Of a DNA stretch of 64,000 nt, positions 7,532-35,433 are shown in pieces. The stretch is from the sequence record OP557969.1. The stretch is one strand, 5' to 3'. The translations under genes and the position numbers were made by a program. The notes under the pieces are model-generated. The model made no database searches, was not told the origin of the DNA, and was given only the letters and a program-made list of their open reading frames with translations. Positions within the stretch are counted from its first letter, which is position 1, and every line of letters begins with the position of its first letter. Source of the DNA: Escherichia phage ph0011.

Positions 7532-7795
7532 ATGAATATCCAAGATAGATTACAATTGTTGTGCACACTTGAACAAGCTGCTTATGAACTTGTTAATAAA
7601 ATCTCTGAAGAACTTCCCAAAGGAACTAGAGTTCGTGTTCGTGAAATGGATTATGTAACGGGTGAAATTGAAGAAAAAGTTTTAACAGTGGTTAAAGTAA
7701 CATACTATGAGTCAGAGCTATCAATTCAATGTAAGTCAGATAATGGTTACATTTCCTACTATGGCACTGATATAGAGATGGAGGTAATCAAATGA
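7532..7795 (+). CDS. hypothetical small protein (helix then K-G-x-x-V beta motif family)
   Basis: ATG 7532 directly after upstream stop; GGTGGA upstream. Confidence 0.5.
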   Translation: MNIQDRLQLLCTLEQAAYELVNKISEELPKGTRVRVREMDYVTGEIEEKVLTVVKVTYYESELSIQCKSDNGYISYYGTDIEMEVIK

Positions 7796-8934
7796 CCCTT
7801 TTACAAATATATGAAGATTTGATGCACTTATGTAATACCCGTGAGGCTTTCTTTTATGTAGATCATAAAAGTCCTGCTGGTGGCACATATCGTGTATTCA
7901 GTTATCGACTAGCATCATATACTGATTTCATGCAACCGAATGCATTGGAAACCCGTGGTTCTATGTGGGAAATCGATGACGATGGCAACATGATACGTTG
8001 TGCATCACGTTGTATGAAAAAGTTCTTTAATGCTTACGAAAATCCTGCTACGATGTTCCCTGCTGATACCAAATGTGATGACATTGCAGTAGTGATGCCT
8101 AAGTTGGATGGTTCAATTATCAGTTCTTACCGTGATAATGATGGTATTATTCGTTGTAAATCACATACCTCATTGTATTCTGACCATGCAATTAACAGTA
8201 CTCGACTAATTAACGAGAACCAGAATTTGTATCAGTACATTGATGAAGCTGAACGTTTGGGTTACACGGTTAACATGGAGTACACAAGCCCAGAGTACCG
8301 AATCGTATTGCCATATCAGGTAGAACAACTATTTGTTCTAAACGTCCGTCATCGTGTAAGTGGTGAATTGTTGTGTGGTAAAGCATTACGCGAAAAGTTT
8401 CCTTGTCTTTCACAGTACAGCACCAATATGACAGGTAAAGATATTCATCACACGTTTCCGGTAAGAAATACATTTCGTGAAAGTGTTGAAGAAGTTCATA
8501 AAATGCTTGATATTGAGGGTTTTGTTTGTATTCTAAAAGATGGGACAATGTGTAAAATAAAGACGGATTGGTATAGTTCATTACATCTAACAAAAGACAG
8601 TATCATTATTGATTCACATTTGTTCGAAGCTGTGTTAAATGGTTCAAGTGACGACTTGAAACAATTATTCAGTACTGACGAATATGCTATGCAAAAGATA
8701 TTGAGAATGGAACAATTGGTATTTTCGTGCTATAATTCATTACAAGATGAGGTAGAAAACTTCGTCAATACACACAAGCACTTGGGACGAAAGGAATTCG
8801 CAATGAAGGTTCAGGAGTGTTTGACTAATGAACTAAATCGTCAGGGCTTGGCCTTTGCAATGTATAACAATAAGTATGTTGATTATAAAGAAACTCTTAT
8901 CAAATACATGAAAGTAGTACTAAAGGACTTTTAG
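7792..8934 (+). CDS. rnlA: RNA ligase 1 (T4 RnlA/gp63-like)
   Basis: N-terminus REAFFYVDH..GGTYRVFSYRLASYTDF matches T4 Rnl1 (KFFYSDD..GRTYRIFSYNYASY); similar length (380 aa). Confidence 0.85.
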   Translation: MTLLQIYEDLMHLCNTREAFFYVDHKSPAGGTYRVFSYRLASYTDFMQPNALETRGSMWEIDDDGNMIRCASRCMKKFFNAYENPATMFPADTKCDDIAVVMPKLDGSIISSYRDNDGIIRCKSHTSLYSDHAINSTRLINENQNLYQYIDEAERLGYTVNMEYTSPEYRIVLPYQVEQLFVLNVRHRVSGELLCGKALREKFPCLSQYSTNMTGKDIHHTFPVRNTFRESVEEVHKMLDIEGFVCILKDGTMCKIKTDWYSSLHLTKDSIIIDSHLFEAVLNGSSDDLKQLFSTDEYAMQKILRMEQLVFSCYNSLQDEVENFVNTHKHLGRKEFAMKVQECLTNELNRQGLAFAMYNNKYVDYKETLIKYMKVVLKDF

Positions 8935-10032: not shown

Positions 10033-10965
10033 ATGCCGACTATCACACTAACAGTTGGTTTACCTGGATGTGGTAAAACAACATGGGCAGTACAAGAGAT
10101 TAAAAAAGCCAAATCCAAGACTATCAATATCAACCGTGATGATATTCGTGAATCGATGGCTGGGTCACATGATGCTTACAAATTCAATGATGCTAATGAG
10201 AAGTACGTAACTAATTTACAGTTCAGTGCAGCAAAATTAGCAGCAGAGAATGGTTGGAATATTATTGTATCCGACACAAACCTTAAACCACATTTCCGTG
10301 AACAATGGAAAATGTGGGCTAAAGATAATGGTTATGATTATAAAGAAAAGAACTTCTATGATGATTTTGTACCAAAGGAAGACCGTGGTGCAGATGTTCA
10401 TGAATTCTTTAAGATTAAAGAGTTTGTAAAACTTTGTAAGAAATATAACCTCCAGCGTGAGCGTTCAGTACAAGATAATATCATTGACACAATGGCAGAT
10501 ACGTACTATTATAGTAAGGCATTGCATATTGGTTACTATGGTAATTCTCGTGAAGAAGCGATTATCGTTGATATCGATGGAACTCTTGCTCATAAATGGA
10601 ACCGCAATCCATTTGATGAAAGTACAGTTCTCCAAGATACACCAGACGAAGAAGTTATTTTGTCTGTTATCGCCGAAGCAGTTTTTCATAAACGCAAGAT
10701 TATTGTCATGAGTGGTCGTACTGAAGGGTGTCGTGCTGACACAGAACAGTGGTTGAAGAATTGGGGTGTTCCCTACGATGCATTGTTTATGCGAGGCATT
10801 GATGATAAACGTCCCGATGATGTTGTTAAATTCGACCTGTACATGAAAAATGTGGTTGATCATTACGATGTTAAAAAAGTATATGATGACAGAGCACAAG
10901 TCGTATTCATGTGGCGTAAACTACTTGGATTGAAAGTGATGCAAGTTGCGGAAGGAAATTTTTAG
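10033..10965 (+). CDS. pseT: polynucleotide 5'-kinase/3'-phosphatase (T4 PseT-like)
   Basis: P-loop GLPGCGKTTWA, NINRDD, HAD-type IIVDIDGTLA phosphatase motif; colinear with T4 Pnk. Confidence 0.85.
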   Translation: MPTITLTVGLPGCGKTTWAVQEIKKAKSKTININRDDIRESMAGSHDAYKFNDANEKYVTNLQFSAAKLAAENGWNIIVSDTNLKPHFREQWKMWAKDNGYDYKEKNFYDDFVPKEDRGADVHEFFKIKEFVKLCKKYNLQRERSVQDNIIDTMADTYYYSKALHIGYYGNSREEAIIVDIDGTLAHKWNRNPFDESTVLQDTPDEEVILSVIAEAVFHKRKIIVMSGRTEGCRADTEQWLKNWGVPYDALFMRGIDDKRPDDVVKFDLYMKNVVDHYDVKKVYDDRAQVVFMWRKLLGLKVMQVAEGNF

Positions 10966-15376: not shown

Positions 15377-15604
15377 ATGAAAGTAATTCAAGTTATGGTA
15401 GAAAAATACCAAACTGAAGATGGTCGCATTTTTGATTCAGCAAAACAAGCTGAACATCATGAACGTATTATTTCTGGTACACGTAAAGTGTGTCCTACAT
15501 GTAATGGAACACAACAAGTACCGTCAGAGGATTACCGCAGCTTTTATGCTTGTCCACAGTGTGACGGTAAAGGTTACGTAGAAAAACAAGAGGTATGGAA
15601 ATGA
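15377..15604 (+). CDS. small zinc-ribbon protein
   Basis: CPTCNG ... CPQCDG. Confidence 0.5.
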   Translation: MKVIQVMVEKYQTEDGRIFDSAKQAEHHERIISGTRKVCPTCNGTQQVPSEDYRSFYACPQCDGKGYVEKQEVWK

Positions 15605-16014
15605 AATTATATTGCTTAACTAATATGTATTGTCAAGGTGTCCAAGCTGGTATTCAAGCATTTCATGCTGGAGTTAAACTAATCAAAGAATATGAAGGTT
15701 CTTCGTTCAGTACTATGATTGATGAATGGTACAATGAGCATGAAACTATTGTAGTACTAAATGCGGGTGGACATGATAAATTAAATTCTTATTATAAAGA
15801 CCTTAACAAACAGGGAACAGTTCCGTTTGCCAAATTCAATGAAGCTGGATTGAATGATGCTATTACATGTATAGCAGTACTGTGTACATCTGAAATGGTT
15901 GAAGATATGTCTATTATGCGTATGAATCTTCCTGCTGGTGATCAGTTAATGCAGGTGAAATATGGATCATTATTTGACACATTAAAAGCAATTAGTACTA
16001 TGAGGACTATTTGA
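15595..16014 (+). CDS. hypothetical protein
   Basis: ORF track. Confidence 0.5.
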   Translation: MEMKLYCLTNMYCQGVQAGIQAFHAGVKLIKEYEGSSFSTMIDEWYNEHETIVVLNAGGHDKLNSYYKDLNKQGTVPFAKFNEAGLNDAITCIAVLCTSEMVEDMSIMRMNLPAGDQLMQVKYGSLFDTLKAISTMRTI

Positions 16015-17213: not shown

Positions 17214-17224
17214 AGGAATATACA

Positions 17225-18643
17225 ATGAGCATTTTAGCAATTATTGAAAGCATTAAAAATACTAGTAGTACACTAGGCAAAAAAGCTATCCTTGAACAAA
17301 ATAAAGATAACTTAACTTTACAAAAAGTACTGAAATATACTCTCGACCCTTCAATTGTAAGTGGCTATAAGAAACTCCCTGCCGCTGATGACGTAGATCA
17401 ACATATGACGTTAGATGAAGCAATTGATAAGCTAGAATGCATTTACAAGCGTAGCTTGACAGGAAATGCGGGGCGTGATTTCATTGCTTCAGTACTGGGT
17501 TCAGTATCAGAAGATGATCAGGAAGTTCTCCGTAAAATGCTCACTAAGAACCTTGATTGTGGTATCCAAGAAAAGAACTGCAATGATGTGTTTGGTAAAG
17601 GATTCATCAAAGACGAACCATATATGCGTTGTTCTTTGATTGACAAAAAGACTGCAAAGAACATTAACTTCAAAGACTATGGCTATGCAGTCTCTGAGGT
17701 GAAAATGGATGGTCAGTACTTGAACCACGTTGTCATTAATGGTTCATTAACTTCTACATCCCGTAATGGTAAACTCTACGACTTCCTGGGTTGTCGTGAT
17801 GGTGAGATGGCAGGTCTTGCTCACATCATCCAAAGTAAAGATGAACGTTTTAGTAGTGGTGTAGTCTTTATGGGTGAAGGTGTAGTACTGGATACTGATG
17901 GAGAAACCATTCTCCCGCGTACTACAGGTAATGGTATTATTCAGAAAGCTGGAAAAGATTCAATCACTCAAAGTGAAGCAATGCGTACTGTATTCGTTCT
18001 ATGGGATGTTGTTCCATATGATGCATTCAGTGAAGGTGTATGGAATGTAAAACGTAAAGAACGCCGCGAGATCTTAGTTGGTGCAATCAATGAACTCGGT
18101 AGTGAATTTGTTCGTATGGTTGGGTTCCGTAAAGTTAACAACATCAAAGAAGCATTTGAGTACAACAGTGAACTGATGAACAAAGGTGAAGAAGGTTCAG
18201 TACTGAAATGTGAAGATGGTATCTGGAAATCTCATACTTCTCCTAAGCAGTTGAAAATGAAACTTAAGATGCAATTGGATTTGCGTATTGTTGGTTTCAA
18301 TGAAGGTGAAGGTAAGCGTAAAGGTAGCCTTGGTTCTTTACAACTGGAAAGTGCATGTGGTACACTAAAAGTAAATGTAGGTACAGGTATCCGTGAAAAA
18401 GATGCCGAATGGACGTTTAAAACCATTTGGGAAAGAATGCAAGAACTCATTGGTAAAGTAGTAACCGTGGAGTGCAATGATATAGTACAAGATAAGCGTA
18501 CTGGCGAACCATCACTATTTTTACCTGTGTTTATTGAATTTAGATTTGACAAAAACACTTGCGACGATTATACTCGTATCTTAGAAATTCGTGATAGTGC
18601 AGTTGAAGTGTTTTCAAACAGTATTATTGAAGTTTTAGGTTAA
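17225..18643 (+). CDS. ATP-dependent DNA ligase (T4 gp30-like)
   Basis: N-terminus MSILAIIESIKNTSSTLGKKAILEQNKDN parallels T4 ligase; KMDG adenylation lysine motif; start set at ATG 17225 after AAGGAA (ORF track begins 17156). Confidence 0.85.
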   Translation: MSILAIIESIKNTSSTLGKKAILEQNKDNLTLQKVLKYTLDPSIVSGYKKLPAADDVDQHMTLDEAIDKLECIYKRSLTGNAGRDFIASVLGSVSEDDQEVLRKMLTKNLDCGIQEKNCNDVFGKGFIKDEPYMRCSLIDKKTAKNINFKDYGYAVSEVKMDGQYLNHVVINGSLTSTSRNGKLYDFLGCRDGEMAGLAHIIQSKDERFSSGVVFMGEGVVLDTDGETILPRTTGNGIIQKAGKDSITQSEAMRTVFVLWDVVPYDAFSEGVWNVKRKERREILVGAINELGSEFVRMVGFRKVNNIKEAFEYNSELMNKGEEGSVLKCEDGIWKSHTSPKQLKMKLKMQLDLRIVGFNEGEGKRKGSLGSLQLESACGTLKVNVGTGIREKDAEWTFKTIWERMQELIGKVVTVECNDIVQDKRTGEPSLFLPVFIEFRFDKNTCDDYTRILEIRDSAVEVFSNSIIEVLG

Positions 18644-18662
18644 CCATTTATTGGAGGTAATT

Positions 18663-19454
18663 ATGAAATTTGTCGTAACATCTGATGTACACGGTAGTAC
18701 TGATTACCTCCATAGTGGGGATTACAGCGATACAGTACTGATTATTGCGGGAGACTTCGATGAAGTTAAACGAAGTCGTTATCGTACTGGTATTGAATCA
18801 CTGTGTAAGCAGTTCAAGAATGTAGTTCTGGTTCCAGGAAACCATGAGTATTATGGTTCAAACATTCACAAAACGCATCGAGTACTGTCCGATATGCAAG
18901 ATGAGATTCCAAATTTCATCTTTTTGCAAAACAAATTTGTATGGCTGGATGGTGTACTGCTCGTTGGTAGCACACTATGGACTGACTTTGATAAAGGCAA
19001 TGCACTGGTTAAGTTTGATGCTCAACAAAAGATGAATGATTATAAACACATTCGTCATGGAACAACATCAGAACCGTGGAAACGTAAACTCAAACCTGAT
19101 GATGTTGAGTTCATGCATTATCAGGATAAACAATTTATCAAAAATTCAGTTGATACAGTTCGTCTAATGAATGATAATGATATCAAGGTTGTGGTGGTAA
19201 CACATCATGCACCAAGTTATCAGAGTGTATCTCCGAGATACAAGAATGACTCACTGAATGGATGTTATTGTTCTGATATGGACCAGTACATCGAAGATTT
19301 GGGTGCTGATGTTTGGATTCATGGTCACGTTCATAGTAGCTTTGACTACCACATTGGTAAGACACGTATCATTTGTAATCCACGAGGCTATGAATCGTAC
19401 AGTGGTGCTTGTGAGAATTTTGATTACAATCCAAAATTTGTAGTTGAAATCTAA
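18663..19454 (+). CDS. calcineurin-like metallophosphoesterase
   Basis: SDVHG, AGDFDE, GNHEYY, HGHVHS motifs; ATG 18663 follows GGAGG. Confidence 0.7.
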   Translation: MKFVVTSDVHGSTDYLHSGDYSDTVLIIAGDFDEVKRSRYRTGIESLCKQFKNVVLVPGNHEYYGSNIHKTHRVLSDMQDEIPNFIFLQNKFVWLDGVLLVGSTLWTDFDKGNALVKFDAQQKMNDYKHIRHGTTSEPWKRKLKPDDVEFMHYQDKQFIKNSVDTVRLMNDNDIKVVVVTHHAPSYQSVSPRYKNDSLNGCYCSDMDQYIEDLGADVWIHGHVHSSFDYHIGKTRIICNPRGYESYSGACENFDYNPKFVVEI

Positions 19455-21875: not shown

Positions 21876-22400
21876 ATGAAATATACACAACTAAACAACA
21901 ATGATACTAATATATGGTTAGGAAATATATCTAAAACACTTGAATTGGTTAAATTCACACTACAAAAATCGGTCGATATTGAAATTAATATTAAGAAAGA
22001 AATATTAAAACATTATCATAAAAATAAATTTTACAAGTTTATTTCTAAATTAATCTATGGGTTATATGATATTGAAGATATTTGTATTGGGTACAGTACT
22101 GGTATTTGTTTCACTACTGATGGTATAATGAATGATTTAAATTTTCGACTAACCCGCGAAGAACAAGATTTTCGTATATTTTGTGATAATATCATGAATG
22201 AAGATAAAATCCAATTTGTGATTGAATTGAGTCAGATATGGTCTGTATATGCAGACAAACCATTCGAAATTAATGAATCAGATATATTAAACTATATTCG
22301 AATAATGAAAATTCATGATTTATGTAAAAACGCATTACTAAGTATTGGAGCCTATGATGAAGCATACGACGTGGTTAAAGATAGCAGAAGTGGTTGCTGA
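21876..22400 (+). CDS. hypothetical protein
   Basis: ORF track; 3' end overlaps cd start. Confidence 0.5.
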   Translation: MKYTQLNNNDTNIWLGNISKTLELVKFTLQKSVDIEINIKKEILKHYHKNKFYKFISKLIYGLYDIEDICIGYSTGICFTTDGIMNDLNFRLTREEQDFRIFCDNIMNEDKIQFVIELSQIWSVYADKPFEINESDILNYIRIMKIHDLCKNALLSIGAYDEAYDVVKDSRSGC

Positions 22401-22836
22401 AGAAAGTAAATGTCTTTCTCAAAAAGTTGGGTGTGTGATTGTTAAAAATAACCGAGTATTGAGTACTGGTTATAATGGTACTCCATCTAAACAACCTAAT
22501 TGTTGTGATGTTAATCAACATTTAGTTAAGAATGGTCGTTTTCAAGACTGGATTAGTGATGAAGCAAAGCATGAACACCATGAGTGGAGTAATATTCATG
22601 AAATACATGCAGAAATGAATGCACTGTTATATAGTTCTCCGACTGAGCGTCAAGGTTCAACACTTTACACAACACTCCAACCGTGTTATACTTGTTCTAA
22701 ATTGATAGCGGGGAGTGGTGTTTCTCGTGTAATTTATCAAAAAAGTTATCCTCGTACTCCACCAGAGGCTATTAAAGTACTGGAAGATGCTGGGATTATT
22801 GTAAATTGCATTTATGATAAGGATCTTGACAAATGA
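22357..22836 (+). CDS. cd: dCMP deaminase (T4 Cd-like)
   Basis: ESKCLSQKVGCVIV, STGYNGTPS, HAEMNAL and PCYTCSK zinc-binding motifs as in T4 Cd; start at ATG 22357 after GGAG. Confidence 0.8.
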   Translation: MKHTTWLKIAEVVAEESKCLSQKVGCVIVKNNRVLSTGYNGTPSKQPNCCDVNQHLVKNGRFQDWISDEAKHEHHEWSNIHEIHAEMNALLYSSPTERQGSTLYTTLQPCYTCSKLIAGSGVSRVIYQKSYPRTPPEAIKVLEDAGIIVNCIYDKDLDK

Positions 22837-23356: not shown

Positions 23357-26029
23357 TTAAGCACTGATTGTTACAGTTGCAGTATCTTTTTTATTACCAT
23401 CCACTGTAGTCACTGTAATGATTACAGAACCTTCTTCTAGAGCAGTTACTAATCCATCATCACTAATAGATACTTTAGTAGGTTTATCTGCACTATAAGT
23501 TACTGATTTGTTAGTTGCTTTAGCTGGTAGAACTTCTGGAACTAGTTGAACTGTTTTAGTTCCTGATAGTGAAAGTTCAGTAGTTTTAGGTGTTAAACTA
23601 ACACTGGATACTGGAACTGGAATATTAACGATTACTGATGTTTGACCAGTAACATCACTACCATCAGCGGCAGTAGCGATAATATTTGCAGTACCATTAG
23701 TTAGTGCAGTTACGATACCAGTATTAGCATCTACTTTAGCAATTTCTGGAGCACTGGATGACCAAATTACATTTTTATTGGTTGCATCACTTGGGGTAAT
23801 TGCAGCAGCCATTTGTTTAGTTGCATTCAATGTAGTCAAAGTTTGATCTTTAGGAGTTACATCAATTGCAGTTACTGGCACTGGAATATTAACAGTAATA
23901 ACACCTTGACCTGTTTTACCACTTCCATCAGCAGCAGTTGCGATAATGTTTGCAGAACCGTTAGTTAACGCAGTTACAACACCAGTACTAGCATCTACTT
24001 TCGCTACAGCAGGTTTACTGGAAGACCATGTTACAGATTTATTTGTTGCGTTAGTTGGAAGAACTTCAGCAGCCATTGCTTGAGTTGCGTTAACAGCAGT
24101 CAATGTTTTAGTTGCTGGAGTAACATTAATAGATGCGACTGGAACTGGAATTGCTACAGTTACCGCACATTTTGCAGTTTTTGCTCCATCAGCAGTTGTT
24201 ACTGTGATATCAGCAGTGCCATTTGCTACAGCAGTGATTAAACCAGTTGGACTAACAGTTGCCACTCCATCAGCAGAAGTACTATAAGTTACTGCTTTGT
24301 TGGTAGCATTAGGTGGTAGTACAGTTGGTGTTAGTTGTTGAGTATCACCGACTGAAGTTAATTTAGCACTTGTTGGAGATACTGATACACTTGCAACAGG
24401 AACTGGAATGTTAACAGTTACCACGCAAACTTTAGAAAATCCACCATCAGATGTGGTTGCTGTAATATTTGCAGTACCGTTTGCAACAGCAGTGATTAAA
24501 CCAGTTGGACTTACCGTTGCGACACCCTCAGCAGAAGTAGTGTATGAAATATCTTTACGACGAGCGTTATCTGGAATAACAGATGCAGTTAGTTGTTGAG
24601 TAGCACCTACAGAAGTTAGGGTTGCTGTCAACGGAGTCATATTAATTCCAGTTACTGGGATCGTTACATCAATCACTGATTCAGCAGTTTTAGCACCATC
24701 ATCAGTGGTAACAGTAATAGTTGTAGTACCGTTATCAACCGAAGTTACTAGACCAGTATTACTAACTTTTGCTACGTCTGGATATGAAGAAACATATGAA
24801 ACTGCTTTATTGGATGCAGTTGCAGGAGCAACGGTTGTTTCTAATTGTTTAGTATCACCTAATGTTGAGAATGTATAAGTACTAGGAGTCATTGTGACAC
24901 CAGATACTGGTGTTTTCACTGTGATTGTAGTAGTGTCCGTTTTAGCACCATCTTCGGTTGTAGCTGTAATCACCACTGTGCCGTTAGCCACACCAGTTAC
25001 TAGACCAGAAGTAGGGTTAACAGTTGCTATATCAGGTGTTGCTGAAGACCACGTGACGTTTTTATTAGTTGCATCATCAGGAGATATTGTAGCAGTTAAT
25101 TGTTGAGTACTGCCAACGTTAATTGATGCAGTTTTAGGAGAAACAACAACACCACTAACTGGAGTTGTTACAGTAACAGTACATTTTGAAACAAATGAAC
25201 CATCAACTGTAGTTGCAATTACATCAGTACTGCCATCTGCAATACCAGTTACCATACCAGTTGGACTTACAGTTGCGAAGCGTGGTATACTGGATGACCA
25301 AATAACACTTTTATCACTTGCATCATCGGGTGATACGGTAGCTGTTAGTTGATGAGTTTTACCAACACCAAGAGATAGAGTTGAAGGAGAAACAACAACA
25401 CCACTAACTGGAGTTGTTACAGTAAATGCACAAACATCGGTGAAACCACCATCATGAGTAGTAACTGTTACATTTGCATTACCATTAGCACGGGCAATTG
25501 CTAAACCAGTTTGAGCATCAACTTCAACTATTGTTGGAGCAGAGGAACTATAACTTACTGTTGGATCATTTGCATAATCTGGATTAATTGTAGCTGATAG
25601 TTGTTGTGTGCTACCAACTTTAAGTGCTACTACTTTGGGTGAAATAATAACACCATTAACTGGTGTAGTATAATCACGTTTAACCACACGACCATTGTTC
25701 AATTTAATAATACGACCCATATAAAGAGTAGCATATCCCTTACTAATCCCATCATCTACATAAATCATAAATGAATTGTCTTGAACCATATTAATTGCGT
25801 CTACTGGCTTAACAGTATTTGGAATGTCGATACCACGGGTATCATACCAACACATGGAAACTTTGTAATATATATCACCATTATCATTGATGAGATCATA
25901 CACGTTACTGGAACGTTGACGGTTAATATATAAAGTTTCGGTTAATACCTTACCATCGATTTTAGCGACAGAAACTTTAATACCACCAATACCAAATGGC
26001 AATTTACCTTCACTAGATATTGCTTTCAT
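23357..26029 (-). CDS. Ig-like (Big_2-type) repeat protein, probable virion surface/decoration or adhesin protein
   Basis: 890 aa; about ten tandem ~85-aa repeats of pattern VSGVVVSP..VG.TQQLTATV.P..ATNK.V.WSS..P..A.V...GLVT..A.G...ITATT.DG; late-promoter motif upstream. Confidence 0.8.
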   Translation of the reverse strand: MKAISSEGKLPFGIGGIKVSVAKIDGKVLTETLYINRQRSSNVYDLINDNGDIYYKVSMCWYDTRGIDIPNTVKPVDAINMVQDNSFMIYVDDGISKGYATLYMGRIIKLNNGRVVKRDYTTPVNGVIISPKVVALKVGSTQQLSATINPDYANDPTVSYSSSAPTIVEVDAQTGLAIARANGNANVTVTTHDGGFTDVCAFTVTTPVSGVVVSPSTLSLGVGKTHQLTATVSPDDASDKSVIWSSSIPRFATVSPTGMVTGIADGSTDVIATTVDGSFVSKCTVTVTTPVSGVVVSPKTASINVGSTQQLTATISPDDATNKNVTWSSATPDIATVNPTSGLVTGVANGTVVITATTEDGAKTDTTTITVKTPVSGVTMTPSTYTFSTLGDTKQLETTVAPATASNKAVSYVSSYPDVAKVSNTGLVTSVDNGTTTITVTTDDGAKTAESVIDVTIPVTGINMTPLTATLTSVGATQQLTASVIPDNARRKDISYTTSAEGVATVSPTGLITAVANGTANITATTSDGGFSKVCVVTVNIPVPVASVSVSPTSAKLTSVGDTQQLTPTVLPPNATNKAVTYSTSADGVATVSPTGLITAVANGTADITVTTADGAKTAKCAVTVAIPVPVASINVTPATKTLTAVNATQAMAAEVLPTNATNKSVTWSSSKPAVAKVDASTGVVTALTNGSANIIATAADGSGKTGQGVITVNIPVPVTAIDVTPKDQTLTTLNATKQMAAAITPSDATNKNVIWSSSAPEIAKVDANTGIVTALTNGTANIIATAADGSDVTGQTSVIVNIPVPVSSVSLTPKTTELSLSGTKTVQLVPEVLPAKATNKSVTYSADKPTKVSISDDGLVTALEEGSVIITVTTVDGNKKDTATVTISA
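23560..25700 (-). repeat. tandem coding repeats (~255-bp period) within Ig-like gene, including identical 40-nt segments
   Basis: ggagaaacaacaacaccactaactggagttgttacagtaa occurs at ~25139 and ~25390. Confidence 0.6.
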
Positions 26030-26066
26030 ATACTTTCCTTTATAAAATTGTATTGTATTGTTATAT

Positions 26067-26074
26067 TATTTATA
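26067..26074 (-). promoter_or_regulatory. T4-type late promoter motif TATAAATA (minus strand)
   Basis: tatttata on + strand, ~37 nt upstream of minus-strand ATG at 26029. Confidence 0.45.
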
Positions 26075-26329
26075 TTATAACAAAATTATTTTAGTATTAA
26101 AAAGGTGTTCGAATGCTTCTTGAAATCTGGCTTGGACAGGTCAATCTTTGCTTTTAAAATGGAATTGTAAACTGCCTCCTGATATGATATCATAGTTTAA
26201 ATGGTAAATCAATAAACTTAACAAAAAAAACTTGCTACTACAGTCATAATTGTTCAATTTTGTACTTGACATAATTAATCAATTATTGTACTATTGTTAA
26301 TGTTCCTTAACTCAAATCCGAGGTAATCA

Positions 26330-26935
26330 ATGAAACTATTCTTGAAAGAGATTGTACAAACCGTTGTTTTAATCGCTGCATTAAATTTTCCAGCAGCGGC
26401 AGAAGTTTCAAAAAAAGCATCTGTTCTTCTATTAAATGAACAGGTTGTATCAATGGATGGTGAACTAAATGATAATACGGTACAAGAAGTAGAGCAGTTG
26501 TGGAAAGAAAAAAGATTTAAAATTTTAACAATTACATCACCTGGGGGTGATTTTGATGCTGGTATTAAAATGGCAAATTTTGTTAGAGACAATGGTATAA
26601 ATTTAATTGTTTCTAAATATTGCAATTCGGCATGTACTGTGGTATTCTTTAGTGTATCCCCAGAAAAGCGATATATGACAAATCAATCAGTACTGGGATT
26701 GCATAATATTTCAATCAAAAGTAACGTTAAAGATATGGATCATACTTTCGTATCTGTTAGACAACTATCATCATTTACTGAAGAAATGGCAACAAAAGTA
26801 GGATTTTTATTTACACTATATTCAGCTAATGGTATTCCACCTAGCATTCTATATAAAGTTAGTCGTTCACGTGGTGAAGATGTTGTTATCTTAACAAAAA
26901 CAGACCTAATAAATTACGGTTCAGTCAATCCATGA
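26330..26935 (+). CDS. secreted ClpP/crotonase-fold (S49-like) protein
   Basis: N-terminal signal-like segment; TSPGGDFDAG resembles ClpP SPGG motif. Confidence 0.5.
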   Translation: MKLFLKEIVQTVVLIAALNFPAAAEVSKKASVLLLNEQVVSMDGELNDNTVQEVEQLWKEKRFKILTITSPGGDFDAGIKMANFVRDNGINLIVSKYCNSACTVVFFSVSPEKRYMTNQSVLGLHNISIKSNVKDMDHTFVSVRQLSSFTEEMATKVGFLFTLYSANGIPPSILYKVSRSRGEDVVILTKTDLINYGSVNP

Positions 26936-27003
26936 AAATAATTATAATAACAGGATGATTATGTTGTTCTTCCTTTGTTATTAACTATATCGGAAATATA
27001 ACC

Positions 27004-27264
27004 ATGACAAACATCCAGAATTTGACATCTATTATTTTTTATGCTACAGTGGTGATATATGCTATTGTACTTATTTTAACAGTTTTTATATACAAAGATT
27101 ACAAAAAAGGCTTTATTAATAGCACAACAATCAAGTTCAATTCTAAATTTAAAGAAATTATATTTTATGTTTTGACAACATCATATTTGTTGTGTATATT
27201 GTTACTAGGGCCATTGATTTATATTTTATATACAACATTATTTGCAATTGGAGCTATTTTATGA
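27004..27264 (+). CDS. small membrane protein
   Basis: three hydrophobic segments. Confidence 0.5.
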   Translation: MTNIQNLTSIIFYATVVIYAIVLILTVFIYKDYKKGFINSTTIKFNSKFKEIIFYVLTTSYLLCILLLGPLIYILYTTLFAIGAIL

Positions 27265-27857
27265 CATGTATTATTGCACACACTAACGGTGTAACTTCAT
27301 TTATTGCAGGGGACAAGATGGGGAGTGATGGTTTTACGAAATCAATCCAAACAGAGCCGAAAGTGTTTGAGAAAGAATTCGTAAAGATTAGTGGTGATGA
27401 CGGCTTGACTCGTACAAAAGATGTTATGACTTTTGGATTCACTACATCATTTCGTATGGGGCAACTGCTAACTTACAATTTAAATTTACCAGACCAAAAT
27501 TCAAATGAGACGTTTCTACAGTACTTAGTACTGAAAGTTATTCCTATTATTCGCCAAATGTTTAAAGACGAATGGGGTGCACGTGATACATCACAAGATG
27601 TTGGTGGTGGTCAATTTATTATTTTACACAATCATAAGATTTATGAAATTCAGGAAGATTTTTCAGTTCTCCAGTCAAAATCAAGTATTGCATCAGTTGG
27701 TAGTGGTACATATCATGCAATTGCAGCGATGCAAGCATACATTGAACTCGAAAAAGAAACTAACGTACAACTTCATGAACGTATCAAATCTATTTTCAAA
27801 ATTGTCAGTGATAATGTGTCGAGTGTAAGTGAAGAGTTTGATGTATTAAAATATTAA
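27261..27857 (+). CDS. HslV/proteasome beta-like Ntn hydrolase
   Basis: M-T start (Thr1 nucleophile) TCIIAHTNGVTSFIAGD and IASVGSGTYHAIAAMQAY parallel HslV TTIVSVRRNGHVVIAGD and IAIGSGGPYAQAAARAL; ATG 27261 overlaps upstream stop with GGAG upstream. Confidence 0.65.
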   Translation: MTCIIAHTNGVTSFIAGDKMGSDGFTKSIQTEPKVFEKEFVKISGDDGLTRTKDVMTFGFTTSFRMGQLLTYNLNLPDQNSNETFLQYLVLKVIPIIRQMFKDEWGARDTSQDVGGGQFIILHNHKIYEIQEDFSVLQSKSSIASVGSGTYHAIAAMQAYIELEKETNVQLHERIKSIFKIVSDNVSSVSEEFDVLKY

Positions 27858-27872
27858 AATTATAAGAGAGAA

Positions 27873-28067
27873 ATGATGGCATACACAATTTATGAATGGA
27901 TTTTGAGTTTTATTATAGTATTTTTTATGGTTGTAATTTACAATAATGCTAAATGCTTATATAGAGATTTAAAATCCAATGGTTATCATGCAAACAATAA
28001 TTTAATGTATGCCTATCATATTGGAATCATTCTATTATTATCAATATATTTAATTGGCTTTATATAA
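27873..28067 (+). CDS. small membrane protein
   Basis: two hydrophobic helices. Confidence 0.45.
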   Translation: MMAYTIYEWILSFIIVFFMVVIYNNAKCLYRDLKSNGYHANNNLMYAYHIGIILLLSIYLIGFI

Positions 28068-28076
28068 GGATTACGT

Positions 28077-28829
28077 ATGATATCAGAAAAATTCATAAGT
28101 AATGAGGGAAACAAGAGATTACTTATCATCTCAGGAGCAGGTCTTTCCGTTGAAAGTGGTATGGACCCATTTCGTTTCGATGATGGCCTATGGGATACAT
28201 TTAAAATTAATGATGTATGTAATATTGCAAATTTAGATACAAAATATCATATTGTTCATTCGTTTTATAACACGCTGCGTGTTAAACTGGGTCAATGTGA
28301 ACCAAATGCAATGCATTATTTTATAAAATCATTAGAGGAACAATATGGTGATTGTTTCCTTCATATGACTTCAAATATGGATGATCTTTACACCCGTATT
28401 GGCGGTAAAGAACTTAAACTTCATGGTAATTTATGTGAAGTGATAGAAAATTATAGTATTAATGGTGATGATTACAACATTGTTAACTGTGGTTATGAGC
28501 CATATATCCCAAAACATGATATTTTTGCTAAACCAAATGTAGTGATGATTGGTGAGTATCATCGTTATGTAGATGGTGTACGCCTACCAATATATGAAGA
28601 ACGAAATAATGTCTTGAAATCCCTTGATGAAAATGATACAGTTATTGTTATTGGTAGCAGCGATACTGTTCTTGTATGGTCCCGATTGGTAGCATCATTG
28701 CCATGTTATAGTGTCAATGTTAATATTAGAAAGAATGATAATGATTTTTTGTTTAATGAAAAAATTATCAAGCCAGCAACCAAAGCAATACCACAACTAG
28801 AGACTATAATTAAGGAACGTATGAAATGA
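28077..28829 (+). CDS. SIR2-family (sirtuin-like) NAD-dependent enzyme
   Basis: GAGLSVESGMDPFRFDDGLW, TSNMDDLYTR, LHGNL, VIVIGSSDTV match sirtuin motifs (CobB GAGISAESGIRTFR..GLW, TQNIDNLHER, HG, IGTSG); zinc tetra-Cys module not evident. Confidence 0.75.
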   Translation: MISEKFISNEGNKRLLIISGAGLSVESGMDPFRFDDGLWDTFKINDVCNIANLDTKYHIVHSFYNTLRVKLGQCEPNAMHYFIKSLEEQYGDCFLHMTSNMDDLYTRIGGKELKLHGNLCEVIENYSINGDDYNIVNCGYEPYIPKHDIFAKPNVVMIGEYHRYVDGVRLPIYEERNNVLKSLDENDTVIVIGSSDTVLVWSRLVASLPCYSVNVNIRKNDNDFLFNEKIIKPATKAIPQLETIIKERMK

Positions 28830-29377
28830 GTGTTAAAGAAGTTCCCTTTGGTGAATATGGTTCACGTGCAAATTTTGTATTCTGCTATTTCTTTGCAAGA
28901 GGATGTAATCCCTACGAAAACTATGAGTTGAATGATATACCAGAAGTAAATTTAGTATTACTTCAACTACGATGGGATGGCCTTCTGGGTGGATGTGGTG
29001 GTACAGTTGAAAGTACTGATATCTCATTAGAAGATGCGTTGCGTCGTGAAATACAAGAAGAAATGAACTACTATATTTTTGTTTCTCACCTAAAACCACT
29101 TAAAACGTTTGAAATTTACCCAGGTGCAAACAGTCATAGTTTCAGTTATGAAGTAACATATGATGAGTTAAAATACATTCGTGATGGGTATACAACTGCC
29201 AAACATGCAAGTGCCGAAGTTGCTGGTGTAAATTTATGTCACATTTCTCGTTATTCTAAGGGACAAAATCGAGAAGCGGGATATAATAATCTTATGACAC
29301 AGAACTTCATCGGTACAGCAAAACACGAATTAGCGTATCTGGTACAAAAAGAGAACTTACTAATTAGCTATCTATAG
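28826..29377 (+). CDS. divergent Nudix-like protein
   Basis: GGCGGTVE ... RREIQEEMN resembles Nudix box G-x5-E-x7-REUxEExGU with longer spacer; start overlaps SIR2 stop (ATGA). Confidence 0.45.
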   Translation: MSVKEVPFGEYGSRANFVFCYFFARGCNPYENYELNDIPEVNLVLLQLRWDGLLGGCGGTVESTDISLEDALRREIQEEMNYYIFVSHLKPLKTFEIYPGANSHSFSYEVTYDELKYIRDGYTTAKHASAEVAGVNLCHISRYSKGQNREAGYNNLMTQNFIGTAKHELAYLVQKENLLISYL

Positions 29378-29387
29378 GAGTTTAAAA

Positions 29388-29708
29388 ATGTCTTACTCTA
29401 TGTTTTTGGATGACATTCGTGATGCAAAACAATATTACCCTAATCAAGATATGGTAGTATGTCGTGATTTTAACAGTGCGTGTGAATATGTTGTTAAAAA
29501 TGGAATTCCAGCATTTGTATCATTTGACCATGACTTGGGTGATATGAGTGGAGACGAAAAAACTGGATATTCTTTTGCTAAATTTCTTATTGATTATATG
29601 TTTGATAATAATATTAAAGAACCGTTTGAGTACTTTGTGCACAGTAGTAACCCAGTTGGTAAAGTTAACATTGAAACATACTTAAACAATGGATTTAATG
29701 CATTATGA
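29388..29708 (+). CDS. hypothetical protein, possible receiver(REC)-like fold
   Basis: FLDDIRD ... FVSFDHDLGD ... VHSSNP acidic-pocket pattern; weak inference. Confidence 0.45.
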   Translation: MSYSMFLDDIRDAKQYYPNQDMVVCRDFNSACEYVVKNGIPAFVSFDHDLGDMSGDEKTGYSFAKFLIDYMFDNNIKEPFEYFVHSSNPVGKVNIETYLNNGFNAL

Positions 29709-30007
29709 TTCAAACACATATTAAAAGTATCATTTGCACTATACTACTAGGTGTAGGAGTTCTATGGTTCAGTAATTATCACGAGAACACTAAGCGTACA
29801 AATATTCACTATAATACCGCAGAAGTTGTAAGTTTAGGACAATGTAGTGAGTACAAATGTTCGTTTATGTACAAAACCAGTAATGGTGAAGTACGTAATG
29901 GACTATCTAGTGAACCAGTTTCGATTGGTCAAATTGTTTACCAGGAGTGCTGGGAAGAAAAGGTTCGAGGTTCACGATGTTATGTTGAATACGAACCAAA
30001 AATGTAA
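29705..30007 (+). CDS. membrane-anchored small protein
   Basis: N-terminal TM IICTILLGVGVLWF. Confidence 0.5.
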   Translation: MIQTHIKSIICTILLGVGVLWFSNYHENTKRTNIHYNTAEVVSLGQCSEYKCSFMYKTSNGEVRNGLSSEPVSIGQIVYQECWEEKVRGSRCYVEYEPKM

Positions 30008-30070
30008 TAATAACATGAGTCAATAATAATAGCCGAGTACAAGGATGTACTCACAATTCAAGGATGTTTT

Positions 30071-31510
30071 ATGAAAAAATATACAATTGACACAAACGTA
30101 CTACTATCTGATCCAAATGCATCTGTTGCTTTTGATGGTGCTGCAATCATTCTACCATTTACAGTACTGGAAGAATTGGATTCGATTAAGAGTCGCAATG
30201 TTGATGTTTCACGTGATGCTCGTGTTGCGATTCGTAACATTGAAGCAATTATTGCAGAGGCATCACATAATGAGATTAGTTGTACTGGTGTTAATATTGC
30301 TGATGTTCATACCAATATGAGTCCTGAAAGCAAATTGTTTGTTATTACAAACGAAGAAGCTGAAGCACTAATTCGTACTAAGGCAATTGAAGATAAAGTT
30401 CAAACACTTCTCAAAAGTTCTGTACCAGATGATAAAATTATCTTAGTCGCTTTAGCAACTGATTCAGTACTGGTTACCCGTGATATCAATATGCGTATCA
30501 AGGCTCTTAGTTATGGAGTTGAAGTACAGGATTATCGTCATGATGTGGTTATCGGTGATAGCGATCTAATGCACGTAGGTCAACATCATCTCGATATCGA
30601 TTTCTGGGCAGAATTCAGTGGGATTGAAAATGCTGAAATTAAATCTGAAAAAACAGGTCGCCGCCTGTATCATTATATCCCAACACATCTAATCAAAGAT
30701 CTTCTTCCACAAAATCTTTGTATTGGTGACTATCTATATGATAATGCTGATGTGCTCTTTGTTTACGAAGGTCAGTCTGCAATCGAAGAAGATGATGGTA
30801 GTCTAACACCAGAAGATATTTTGGTCTTCCAAGATATTGGTCAATCTGTTGCATTACGTGCTAATGTATGGGATATTAAAGCTAAGAATGTCAAACAAGC
30901 ACTAGCTATTAATAGTATTCTCGATCCCGATGTACATCTAACAGTTCTACTAGGTTCTGCTGGGACAGGAAAAACACTAATTACGATTGCTACTGCACTA
31001 GAGTTAGTTCTGGAAAAACGTAAATACGACCGTATTATCTTCTCTAAAACACAAGATTCACAGTTTGAAGATATCGGATTCTTGCCTGGTTCAGAGGCCG
31101 AGAAAGTGATTCCATTTTGTGGTCCAGCGATTGACGCACTAGAGTACCTACATAAAGATGATGCAAATCCACAAGGTAGCATTGAGGAAATCATGAAACG
31201 TAATGTTATCCAGTTCAAAGCATTGAACTTTATTCGTGGTCGTTCTTTTGCCAATACAATTCTAATTGTGGATGAAGCACAGAACTTAACACCAGCCCAG
31301 CTAAAAACTGTCTTGACAAGAGCCGGAGAAAACTGTAAAGTAATCATACTTGGTAACCTAGCACAGATCGATAACAAGTTTATCAGTCCAGTAAACAGCG
31401 GTCTAACTTATGTAACTGAGAAATTTAAAAATTGGTCTGGTTGTCGTATCATTGAATTGGAAGGTGTTGTTCGTTCACCACTTGCTGAATTTGCTGAAGA
31501 AAATATGTAA
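30071..31510 (+). CDS. phoH: PIN domain-PhoH-like ATPase
   Basis: N-terminal PIN-like (IDTNVLLSDP, LEELD); Walker A VLLGSAGTGKT, Walker B ILIVDEAQN. Confidence 0.8.
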   Translation: MKKYTIDTNVLLSDPNASVAFDGAAIILPFTVLEELDSIKSRNVDVSRDARVAIRNIEAIIAEASHNEISCTGVNIADVHTNMSPESKLFVITNEEAEALIRTKAIEDKVQTLLKSSVPDDKIILVALATDSVLVTRDINMRIKALSYGVEVQDYRHDVVIGDSDLMHVGQHHLDIDFWAEFSGIENAEIKSEKTGRRLYHYIPTHLIKDLLPQNLCIGDYLYDNADVLFVYEGQSAIEEDDGSLTPEDILVFQDIGQSVALRANVWDIKAKNVKQALAINSILDPDVHLTVLLGSAGTGKTLITIATALELVLEKRKYDRIIFSKTQDSQFEDIGFLPGSEAEKVIPFCGPAIDALEYLHKDDANPQGSIEEIMKRNVIQFKALNFIRGRSFANTILIVDEAQNLTPAQLKTVLTRAGENCKVIILGNLAQIDNKFISPVNSGLTYVTEKFKNWSGCRIIELEGVVRSPLAEFAEENM

Positions 31511-31514
31511 TATT

Positions 31515-31537
31515 GTATGGGACAATATGTCCCATAC
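31515..31537 (+). terminator. hairpin (terminator or operator) overlapping promoter
   Basis: gtatgggac/gtcccatac perfect 9-bp stem; no T-tract. Confidence 0.35.
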
Positions 31538-31538
31538 A

Positions 31539-31547
31539 TGATATAAT
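31539..31547 (+). promoter_or_regulatory. extended -10 promoter element TGATATAAT
   Basis: exact 9-mer 33 nt upstream of ATG 31580. Confidence 0.45.
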
Positions 31548-31579
31548 GCTGTTATCATAATACAGAAGGAGATAGTAAA

Positions 31580-31768
31580 ATGGCTAAACAACCTAAGAAA
31601 AAAGAACCAGTAGCTAAAGTTAAAAAAGCAAAAGTTATTACATCCACAGAACAACGTATGTACGAACAACGTAAGAGTGAAACACTTTCTGGTCTACAAG
31701 CTCTTCGCAAACAAGGAGTCCTAACTCGTGCACAATATCGTAAGTTGGTAACACAAAAAGGTTATTGA
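31580..31768 (+). CDS. small basic protein
   Basis: Lys-rich 62 aa; strong SD aaggag. Confidence 0.55.
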   Translation: MAKQPKKKEPVAKVKKAKVITSTEQRMYEQRKSETLSGLQALRKQGVLTRAQYRKLVTQKGY

Positions 31769-31869
31769 TACATTTGAAGTAATATTATGGGGTTCTTAAT
31801 AAATAACCTTATAAGAATAATAATACTTTTTATTAAATTAAAAAGAACTCCATGTGTTATTTCAGTTTT

Positions 31870-31898
31870 TATCCCTGTCGGTTGGCAGGGATTTTTTC
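31870..31898 (+). terminator. rho-independent terminator
   Basis: stem atccctg/cagggat followed by TTTTTT. Confidence 0.6.
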
Positions 31899-31994
31899 TA
31901 TCTATGTATTGACAAAAGGATTAATTTATGAGAACATGTATAAAAGGCCGTATGACATTCCATTAGGTTAGTTTTTAACTTAAAGGAGATATAT

Positions 31995-32552
31995 ATGTTT
32001 TTTGACCAAACATTTACGTTGTACCATGATTCTGGTAAAGTTGAGATTATTGAAAATCTATTACAGTACATTGCAGATCATGATGGTGTTGAACGTTTCC
32101 ATAGTAAGATGAAATTCGATTTAGCTGAATTCAACAAAAAGAATCGTGAAACTTTTTGGAAGAACCGATTCTATTATGAAATGTTTCCAGAAAGGTTTGT
32201 TGGTTATTATCTTTGTACTGAGAAAGGTTTATTAGTATCTCCAGATTTACTTATGGGTGAATACATGGTTCTCTATAATGAGTACTGGAAAAATAAACGT
32301 AACGCTCGTGACATTGAGTGGAGACATAAGCGTTCGTACATGTACAAACACAACCACTCCCGATACAAACGTCCTAAGACTCAACAAGAGCGTCGTATGG
32401 CGTGTGCAGTACTGAAGGACGAGGGGGAACCTGAAATACGTGGAAGACGTAAGATGCGTTCATTACCATCGTATTGGAACGATATCAGAACAAGACATAG
32501 TACCGGATGGAAATACAGTACTAAGCGTAAAAAACAATACAAAGGGGGCTAA
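31995..32552 (+). CDS. hypothetical protein with basic C-terminus
   Basis: ORF track; SD aaggag. Confidence 0.55.
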   Translation: MFFDQTFTLYHDSGKVEIIENLLQYIADHDGVERFHSKMKFDLAEFNKKNRETFWKNRFYYEMFPERFVGYYLCTEKGLLVSPDLLMGEYMVLYNEYWKNKRNARDIEWRHKRSYMYKHNHSRYKRPKTQQERRMACAVLKDEGEPEIRGRRKMRSLPSYWNDIRTRHSTGWKYSTKRKKQYKGG

Positions 32553-34441: not shown

Positions 34442-35068
34442 TTGGAGAAAATCATGACTACATCTGAAAAGTACTGGTGGATTATGGGCCATCCTAAATT
34501 CATCAACGGAGATATGGTTCCCCCAAGGATTGATATCGAACCACATGATGTGTGTCCAATCACAAACCGCATTGAATCATTTAAAGCTCTGAATACAAAG
34601 ACACAATTTTGGGTAGAATTCATCTCACCTATGTACGTTGAGCAAGATGATGAATGGGTACAAGCACATGATTATGAGTTAGATTGCGGTGGTGATACTT
34701 ATGATGAGGCAATTGATGCACTATACAAAAATGTACTAAACACTTATGGTGATTACACCCAACAAGAAGCAGACGATACGTTTAATAAGATCCATGCAGC
34801 CATTTCTACATCATCAATTTACAATTCTGCAAAAACAGTTTGGGAAGAACGTCACGGGTGGAGTTCATCTGTAATTGATGCAGAAGCCAAAGAAACAATT
34901 CTCGAAGACATAAAAAATATAAAAAGTACAATAGAAGCCTTGCGTGAATTTATAAAGTCTTGTACAATAGAACAACAGAAAGAGGCAAAGATGCATTTGG
35001 AGAGTGAAGAATGTAAACTTTGGGTTCTAGAGAAATCTATTGAAAAGGGTATAGACTTAGACTTATGA
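34442..35068 (+). CDS. hypothetical protein
   Basis: ORF track. Confidence 0.5.
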   Translation: MEKIMTTSEKYWWIMGHPKFINGDMVPPRIDIEPHDVCPITNRIESFKALNTKTQFWVEFISPMYVEQDDEWVQAHDYELDCGGDTYDEAIDALYKNVLNTYGDYTQQEADDTFNKIHAAISTSSIYNSAKTVWEERHGWSSSVIDAEAKETILEDIKNIKSTIEALREFIKSCTIEQQKEAKMHLESEECKLWVLEKSIEKGIDLDL

Positions 35069-35433
35069 ATCGTAAACTTGAGAAACTAATTGAAGAACTA
35101 CGCCGGATGCCACCCATCGAGCAAGTGGGGAGTTACAAACGTTATCGTGTGATTGCTCGTGCACTAGATAAGAAAGGTCGTGTATTGGCAACACGTACTA
35201 ATTCTTACACACATACTCACCCAGTACAGAAAGGTTTTGCAATCCGTGCTGGAAGACCACAAGGTGAGTTTCTTCATGCTGAAATTTCATGTTTATTAGC
35301 TTCACGTGCTGAAGTTCATACTTTGTTGATTGCACGGATAAGTAAAGATGGTATTCCAGTTCCAGCCAAGCCTTGTGAGATTTGTACGTTGGCAATTATG
35401 GAATATGGGGTCAAAGAAATTATTCACACATGA
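35065..35433 (+). CDS. cytidine/deoxycytidylate deaminase-like zinc enzyme
   Basis: HAEISCL and PCEIC zinc-ligand motifs with typical spacing. Confidence 0.6.
   Translation: MNRKLEKLIEELRRMPPIEQVGSYKRYRVIARALDKKGRVLATRTNSYTHTHPVQKGFAIRAGRPQGEFLHAEISCLLASRAEVHTLLIARISKDGIPVPAKPCEICTLAIMEYGVKEIIHT

Follow-up and report, generated by a model that had tools for sequence, protein, structure and literature searches.

The closest described relatives of the locus analyzed here are neighborhoods of jumbo-phage genes in which a sirtuin is found with 2H, Nudix, cREC and PIN domains (Iyer et al. 2022, Viruses 14:1977; PMC9503650, sect. 3.7.3). That study predicts RNA repair dependent on nicotinamide adenine dinucleotide (NAD), with the sirtuin acting like Tpt1/KptA (PMC9503650). 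The cREC domain was itself defined in Iyer et al. 2021 (PMC7824862), and the cyclic-phosphate phosphoesterase activity assigned to it is a prediction that both papers call experimentally uncharacterized (PMC7824862; PMC9503650). We analyzed a stretch of 64,000 nucleotides (nt) from Escherichia phage ph0011 (OP557969.1), hereafter the window, which contains a cassette of adjacent SIR2 (sirtuin), Nudix and cREC genes. This cassette is an already known predicted system, described computationally in 2021-2022, and not the undescribed module that an initial annotation of the window had taken it for: the neighborhood was published in Iyer et al. 2022 and cREC in 2021, and the GenBank records of phages of the UE-S1/121Q/PBECO4 type already carry "Sir2-like protein" and "nudix hydrolase" annotations. 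The main text of Iyer et al. 2022 mentions neither 121Q nor PBECO4 by name (PMC9503650).

The sirtuin, Nudix, cREC and PIN genes that mark the type 1 neighborhood of Iyer et al. (2022) are contiguous in the window at 28077-31510, but the linked 2H phosphoesterase of that type is absent from the 64 kb. Compared with the prototype, Serratia phage BF (AQW88637.1), the window has the same sirtuin clade and the same gene order, with identities of 44% for the sirtuin, 46% for the Nudix, 61% for cREC and 67% for PIN-PhoH, and it shares the small membrane protein. It differs from BF in having Nudix and cREC as separate genes and in lacking the 2H gene, NadV and NMNAT; tblastn with the BF NadV, NMNAT-Nudix and 2H/Acb1-like proteins found no homologs in the window. 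The phage is an Asteriusvirus-type jumbo phage (121Q/PBECO4-like) rather than the T4-like phage initially supposed: Escherichia phages UE-S1, 121Q and PBECO4 match the region with 88-91% identity. We conclude that the gene set is real and that it probably handles NAD-derived ADP-ribose products.

In this giant E. coli phage, SIR2, Nudix and cREC are encoded by three tightly packed open reading frames (ORFs) at the coordinates first assigned to them (table 1), and all of the motifs originally quoted are present: GAGLSVESG, DPFR..GLW, TSNMDDLYTR and HG in SIR2, GGCGGTVE...RREIQEEMN in Nudix and FLDD..FDHDLG in the third protein. The accompanying guesses of SIR2, Nudix and REC-like domains were borne out by profiles, structure models and fold searches.

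Table 1. Genes of the cassette and other features of the window referred to in the text (TM, transmembrane; aa, amino acids).
Feature	Coordinates	Strand	Family match or remark
Zinc-less class III-like sirtuin (SIR2), 250 aa	28077..28829	+	PF02146, phrog_2162
NUDT16/X29-family Nudix hydrolase, 183 aa	28826..29377	+	PF22327, phrog_9999
cREC (cyclic-phosphate-processing receiver) domain protein, 106 aa	29388..29708	+	PF20274
Small Cys-containing membrane protein, 100 aa	29705..30007	+	phrog_14661 E=1e-41
PIN-PhoH (PhoH2-type) predicted RNA nuclease/helicase, 479 aa	30071..31510	+	PF13638 PIN_4, PF02562 PhoH
Two-TM ORF, 64 aa	27873..28067	+	9 nt upstream of SIR2
T4 Rnl1-type RNA ligase	7792..8934	+	PF09511 E=2e-15, PF20819 E=5e-17; outside cassette
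Polynucleotide kinase-phosphatase (PNKP)	10033..10965	+	PF25109 HAD_PNKP E=7e-43, AAA_33 E=5e-14; outside cassette

The Pfam matches of the cassette domains all exceed the curated cut-offs. The sirtuin matches PF02146 (SIR2) at E=1e-19, with 71.5 bits against a cut-off of 24, and phrog_2162 (Sir2) of PHROGs at E=2e-77; NCBIfam returns sub-threshold CobB-type matches only. Among proteins of solved structure it is closest to E. coli CobB (E=4e-22), with archaeal Sir2 and SIRT5 next, and the top Foldseek matches of its AlphaFold2 model (pLDDT 92) are CobB, Af-Sir2 and SIRT5 with TM-scores of 0.76-0.85. Residues G20, G22, S27, N100, D102 and H116 are invariant in an alignment of the clade (n=30), indicating that the NAD-binding and catalytic apparatus of sirtuins is intact.

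The absence of a zinc tetra-cysteine module, pointed out in the initial annotation, is confirmed by the alignment: the six cysteines are scattered without a CxxC pair, and C119 and C138 in the small-domain region vary even among close homologs. Because the cysteines are not conserved, there is no Cys-coordinated zinc site, and such a site has already been reported missing in the Sir2/CobB of Vibrio phages (PMC5107563). The peptide-binding FGE and VYP (beta-staple) motifs of the CobB/SIRT5 deacylases likewise appear to be missing: V219-Y220-P221 of CobB aligns with V198-L199-V200, position 200 being variable in the clade, and the Phe of FGE is I, F, L or T across the clade. Y64 and R68 are invariant and lie beside the class III YxxR anion-binding position, with a spacing of Y-x3-R against Y-x2-R. 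This is a CobB-like (class III) sirtuin, which resembles the CobB/SIRT5 deacylases rather than the defense-type SIR2 NADases that it had been associated with at first. A defense-type reading of the protein was rejected on its fold neighbors (no defense-type SIR2 structure among the top 50 Foldseek matches) and its want of partner domains (no SLOG, HerA, TIR or pAgo neighbors on inspection of neighborhoods and Pfam matches). The defense models of PADLOC give no significant match for SIR2, Nudix or cREC. Pfam also detects no KptA/Tpt1 domain of the ADP-ribosyltransferase (ART) fold in the cassette.

The Nudix hydrolase belongs, by its sequence, to the NUDT16/X29 family. It matches PF22327 (Nudt16-like) at E=2e-18 (67.3 bits, cut-off 27), PF00293 (NUDIX) at E=2e-6, also over the cut-off, and phrog_9999 (nudix hydrolase) at E=2e-86; human NUDT16 is matched by residues 38-179 (E=3e-12), and a profile of the family finds X29/NUDT16 at 1e-28 to 1e-26 as against 2.5e-10 for the next Nudix family. 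The catalytic glutamates of the Nudix box (REUxEE), E75, E78 and E79, do not vary across 50 homologs, nor does E131, and the conservation of R74 is at least 90%. The spacer of the Nudix box, which had first seemed expanded and unusual, follows the NUDT16 norm: the segment GGCGGTVESTDISLEDALRREIQEEMN matches human NUDT16 column for column, and the idea of an aberrant Nudix was dropped. NUDT16-like Nudix proteins are rare, with 214 representative clusters recovered by an exhaustive search of 1.84 billion proteins, and the domains fused to them include cREC, Ham1 and HD. In the metagenomic proteins P0232 and P0248 the NUDT16-like domain is joined to Ham1/ITPase and HD domains, which hints that some members may work in nucleotide-pool cleaning instead of ADP-ribose metabolism. 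Removal of NAD caps from RNA has been reported for NUDT16, as has activity on flavin adenine dinucleotide (FAD) and 7-methylguanosine (m7G) caps (PMC7337524; PMC13145063).

The third protein matches PF20274 (cREC_REC) over the cut-off (E=1.5e-22) and falls in phrog_1479, a PHROGs family of unknown function. Its receiver (CheY-like) fold is confirmed, its acidic pocket of D8, D9, D47 and D49 is invariant, and no histidine kinase is present in any of the neighborhoods inspected around cREC and sirtuin loci. The membrane protein that follows has no Pfam match; it has an N-terminal TM helix and four cysteines toward its C-terminus. PIN-PhoH matches PF13638 (PIN_4) at E=3e-20 and PF02562 (PhoH) at E=3e-47, and the NCBIfam model for RNA 5'-3' helicase PhoH2 at E=9e-49, under the cut-off of that model.

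The distribution of the proteins was examined with tblastn against 50,697 phage records. The sirtuin clade is widespread (987 records; T5-like, V5-like, KVP40-like, giant phages and others) and cREC less so (140 records; giant phages together with Aeromonas, Acinetobacter, Cellulophaga and other phages), and the NUDT16-like Nudix is found in 70 records, only in giants of the RaK2/121Q/CBB/BF/GAP32/Munch type. Linkage was scored in 19 loci of RaK2-like giants, four from GenBank and 15 from IMG/VR, and standing for some 13 different phages. All 19 have SIR2, Nudix, cREC, membrane protein and PIN-PhoH in this order, although identity drops to 41% for SIR2 and 46% for Nudix, and in BF, XbC2 and the metagenomic protein P0164 Nudix and cREC form a single polypeptide. 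The proposal of a linked NAD/ADP-ribose module is thus upheld by the conserved order and the fusions. Since a single phage group supplies all 19 loci, the conserved order could partly reflect shared ancestry, which counts against a functional reading of it.

Translational coupling of SIR2 and Nudix had also been suggested, from an ATGA at 28826-28829 in which the TGA stop of SIR2 is shared with the ATG start of Nudix. The overlap is present, but it is not kept in the relatives, where the two genes overlap by 1 nt, stand a short distance apart or are separated by an inserted ORF, and it is ordinary phage gene packing; a second ATGA joins the cREC stop to the start of the membrane-protein ORF. 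In Munch-type phages an extra ORF of 122 aa lies between SIR2 and Nudix (L004:4620-4988, Salmonella phage Munch; also L012, L013, L014 and L024), breaking the overlap; it has no family match. The neighborhoods of SIR2 in Vibrio phage phi-pp2 and of the cREC homologs L025, L029 and L030 contained nothing informative.

We lean, without yet calling it probable, toward the proposal made from gene context by Iyer et al. (2022), in which the cassette is a NAD-consuming module for RNA-end repair or processing. The sirtuin would use NAD+ to place ADP-ribose onto the phosphate of a damaged or ligated RNA end, most likely a 2'-phosphate, and would so be a fold-unrelated analog of Tpt1/KptA; this step would release nicotinamide and an ADP-ribose cyclic-phosphate by-product. 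The cREC protein, as a receiver-fold phosphoesterase, and the NUDT16-type Nudix would then dismantle that by-product or RNA-linked ADP-ribose, cREC opening the cyclic phosphate and Nudix cutting the pyrophosphate to give AMP, with RNA handling supplied by PIN-PhoH. Every substrate and every reaction step in this scheme is one that we infer. The fusion of Nudix to cREC in relatives suggests consecutive steps on one substrate, and the missing zinc module and VYP motif, together with the variable Phe of FGE, fit a non-peptide acceptor. The chemistry of sirtuins, with attack on C1'' followed by attack of the 2''-OH, parallels the two steps of Tpt1. The de-NADding of RNA reported for NUDT16 and the invariant Y64 and R68 of the sirtuin also speak for the scheme.

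Independent contexts of the SIR2 clade and of cREC favor RNA-end repair more strongly than they favor counter-defense. Proteus phage Mydo encodes in one run an Rnl1-type ligase, cREC, a kinase-only polynucleotide kinase (PNK)-like protein and a SIR2 of the same clade, a run that mirrors by function yeast Trl1, which combines ligase, kinase and cyclic phosphodiesterase (CPD), plus Tpt1. In T5 a protein with a HAD "Swiss-army-knife RNA repair" domain is encoded three genes away from SIR2, and in Aeromonas phage 65 cREC is near a tRNA nucleotidyltransferase. A metagenomic phage contig of 44.6 kb carries an RNA-repair cluster that has cREC but neither sirtuin nor Nudix (L027:3994-5417). There the end of an Rnl2-type RNA ligase gene, stop codon included, is overlapped by cREC, and genes for an Rnl1 ligase, a kinase-only PNK-like protein and a metallophosphoesterase come next. 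In the window, genes for Rnl1, PNKP and a PTH2-like protein are located 12-20 kb upstream of the cassette, and by analogy with Mydo-type clusters Rnl1 and PNKP are possible functional partners of the cassette.

Several points weigh against RNA-end repair. Our literature search turned up no experiments on cREC or phage sirtuins, nor biochemical or genetic data on this Nudix. The T4-type Pnkp/Rnl1 pathway leaves no 2'-phosphate, making the need for a Tpt1-like step uncertain, and cyclic-phosphate ends are not an expected product of PIN nucleases, which depend on metal. A 2H cyclic phosphodiesterase is missing from the window, and in relatives the "2H" gene on which the link to RNA repair was built has its match in the Acb1 anti-CBASS family, which weakens the RNA-repair argument. 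The nearest solved relatives of the sirtuin are protein deacylases, and in Mydo and L027 the metallophosphoesterase, rather than cREC, could carry out end-healing.

The Acb1 match directs attention to the genes that lie upstream of the cassette in relatives. NadV is upstream in 18 of the 19 loci and an NMNAT-Nudix fusion wherever the flank is long enough, and in 16 loci there is a 2H protein of 148 aa that matches Pfam Acb1 (PF23474) over the cut-off at E=3.6e-15. This Acb1-family gene (L002:3507-3953 in Serratia phage BF, L004:3407-3853, L005:3499-3945 and 13 further loci) is annotated as "RNA ligase" or "structural protein". The same 148-aa gene is treated as a 2H RNA-repair component in the available text of Iyer et al. 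2022, which makes no mention of an Acb1 match for the 2H gene of the prototype (PMC9503650). The Acb1-family gene, the NMNAT-Nudix fusion and NadV form a run of counter-defense genes in these relatives, and earlier work showed that NadV and NMNAT together (NARP2) overcome NAD-depleting defense systems (bioRxiv 10.1101/2024.02.11.579819). The 121Q-type lineage of the window has lost NadV, NMNAT and Acb1 from the neighborhood and kept the cassette, indicating that the cassette does not depend on them. No Asteriusvirus is found among the close NadV matches, of which at most 20 of 1009 are Escherichia records; apparently no Asteriusvirus genome carries NadV.

The position of the cassette in relatives, next to NadV/NMNAT and a gene of the Acb1 family, lends some support to a counter-defense function, instead of or besides RNA repair, which we nevertheless consider unlikely. 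Nudix and cREC would degrade immune signals or toxins derived from ADP-ribose or reverse ADP-ribosylation, the sirtuin would modify a host immune component, and the cassette would work alongside NAD+ reconstitution by NadV/NMNAT and alongside Acb1; targets of Nudix-cREC could include gcADPR isomers, His-ADPR and ADP-ribose cyclic phosphates. The cassette is contiguous with the NMNAT-Nudix fusion, NadV and the Acb1-family protein in 16-18 of the 19 loci, the NARP2 pair defeats NAD-depleting defenses, and phage Nudix and cREC have been argued to counter mainly soluble ADP-ribose derivatives (Iyer et al. 2021/2022). However, a sirtuin that itself consumes NAD would be a strange partner in resisting NAD depletion, PADLOC gives no significant match for any of the three proteins, adjacency within a single phage group may be inherited gene order, and the lineage of the window kept the cassette after NadV, NMNAT and Acb1 had gone from its vicinity. 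The literature contained no experiment on such a function that we could find.

A further explanation, to which we give a similarly low probability, is that the sirtuin is a host-takeover protein deacylase, stripping acetyl or acyl groups from host or phage proteins as CobB does, with Nudix, perhaps with cREC, destroying the resulting O-acyl-ADP-ribose and NadV recycling inhibitory nicotinamide in relatives. The closest matches in sequence and structure (CobB, Af-Sir2 and SIRT5; E=4e-22, TM about 0.8) and the complete set of catalytic residues agree with it, as does the presence of NadV and NMNAT upstream in 18 of the 19 loci, and Nudix enzymes that hydrolyze O-acetyl-ADP-ribose are known. A precedent is the proposal of Skliros et al. 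2016 that a zinc-less phage Sir2/CobB, whose transcript is high at 20 min post infection, activates host Acs (PMC5107563). Yet the clade lacks the zinc module and the peptide-binding VYP motif, E. coli already has CobB, and the Asteriusvirus lineage holds the cassette without NadV. Deacylation also leaves unexplained cREC, the Nudix-cREC fusions, the PIN-PhoH linkage and the repeated occurrence of this SIR2 clade among RNA-ligase and kinase genes.

It is quite improbable that the genes are neighbors by inherited order with no joint mechanism, Nudix acting alone in decapping/de-NADding or in (d)IDP/ITP house-cleaning: all 70 phage records with the Nudix fall in one giant-phage group, so that shared descent may account for the linkage, activity on NAD, FAD and m7G caps is reported for NUDT16 (PMC7337524; PMC13145063), a Ham1(ITPase)-Nudt16-like fusion exists (P0232) and four-nucleotide overlaps are routine in phages, but ancestry alone hardly explains the Nudix-cREC fusions and the SIR2-cREC linkage in Mydo, a phage of an unrelated subfamily, and the order outlasted the rearrangements that brought upstream gene loss in Asteriusvirus and ORF insertion in Munch-type phages.

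The cassette shows no sign of recent acquisition, as its GC content (31-35%) is the same as that of its surroundings. Minus-strand ORFs beneath it do not exceed 88 aa, and a gap of 63 nt separates the membrane-protein ORF from that of PIN-PhoH. A promoter/terminator scan of 26000-32200 gave 39 promoter-like sites where 35 are expected and no clear terminator within the cassette. ARAGORN predicts no tRNA genes in the window, leaving no local tRNA cluster to connect with tRNA repair. The two-TM ORF immediately upstream of SIR2 is a doubtful member; it has no family match in Pfam or PHROGs and is kept only in the 121Q-type locus L010 (86%), other lineages being without it. Directly upstream are protease-like genes, one ClpP-like (26330-26935; PF00574 E=5.5e-5, phrog_26024) and one HslV-like (27258-27857; phrog_1040 E=9e-22), the latter also upstream in Munch-type phages. 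An ORF of 890 aa on the minus strand (23357-26029) has about nine Big_2 Ig-like repeats (PF02368 E=9e-136); the same position in 121Q holds nothing more than an Ig-domain structural protein of 126 aa and an ORF of 43 aa, indicating that the repeat array is greatly expanded in the phage of the window. A dCMP deaminase-like gene lies at 22345-22836, and in 121Q a second dCMP deaminase is annotated at the equivalent of ~35 kb (about 35065-35433). The anaerobic ribonucleotide reductase genes nrdD/nrdG are found downstream; SIR2 of T5 also adjoins nrdD and PhoH. The T4-style set of nucleic-acid repair genes upstream also has the PTH2-like peptidyl-tRNA hydrolase (15595-16014), an ATP-dependent DNA ligase (17156-18643) and a calcineurin-like phosphoesterase (18651-19454).

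The window reveals no new system, as both main hypotheses are in print already, together with the gene set and its linkage, and the increments are modest: the assignment of the Nudix to the NUDT16 family, the confirmed receiver fold, and the finding that relatives have an Acb1/NARP2 context which Asteriusvirus has lost. Sirtuins of this clade are nevertheless encoded by about 1,000 sequenced phages (T5-like, V5-like, KVP40-like and RaK2-like), their activity having been demonstrated in none. The sirtuin may be the first non-ART enzyme to remove 2'-phosphates from RNA, and if so would show that the Tpt1 reaction had been invented again on another fold and that sirtuin chemistry reaches nucleic acids. 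An anti-defense role of the cassette would instead add more enzymes to the NAD-centered arms race.

Compared with known systems, the proposed logic is that of Tpt1/KptA with Cpd1 (2H) and Poa1 (Macro), in which the 2'-phosphate of RNA is removed with NAD and the resulting ADP-ribose 1'',2''-cyclic phosphate (Appr>p) is broken down, and the Mydo cluster of ligase, cREC, kinase and SIR2 matches the list of activities of Trl1 plus Tpt1. The two share no homologous protein, however, and the likeness is a predicted analogy, with a sirtuin Rossmann fold for the ART fold and cREC/Nudix for 2H/Macro. Among class III sirtuins, CobB and human SIRT5 are the best sequence and fold matches of the window sirtuin and share its GAGxS, N/D and His residues, but they differ in the zinc cysteines and VYP that it lacks, in the Phe of FGE, which is variable in its clade, and in its Y-x3-R for Y-x2-R. 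The window Nudix aligns over its full length with NUDT16/X29 (U8 small nucleolar RNA decapping and de-NADding) and shares the form of the Nudix box and all of the glutamates, at ~30% identity; the phage context and the cREC fusions are not seen in the eukaryotic enzymes. Thoeris ThsA, DSR1/2 and SIR2-HerA belong to the same SIR2 superfamily and, as a class, defense SIR2s consume NAD+, whereas the window sirtuin is without SLOG, HerA or another partner domain and is encoded by a lytic phage. NARP2 (NadV + NMNAT) and Acb1, finally, are upstream neighbors in most relatives and not components of the cassette. The window, from which they are missing, offers a clean, unfused and minimal cassette that is usable for experiments.

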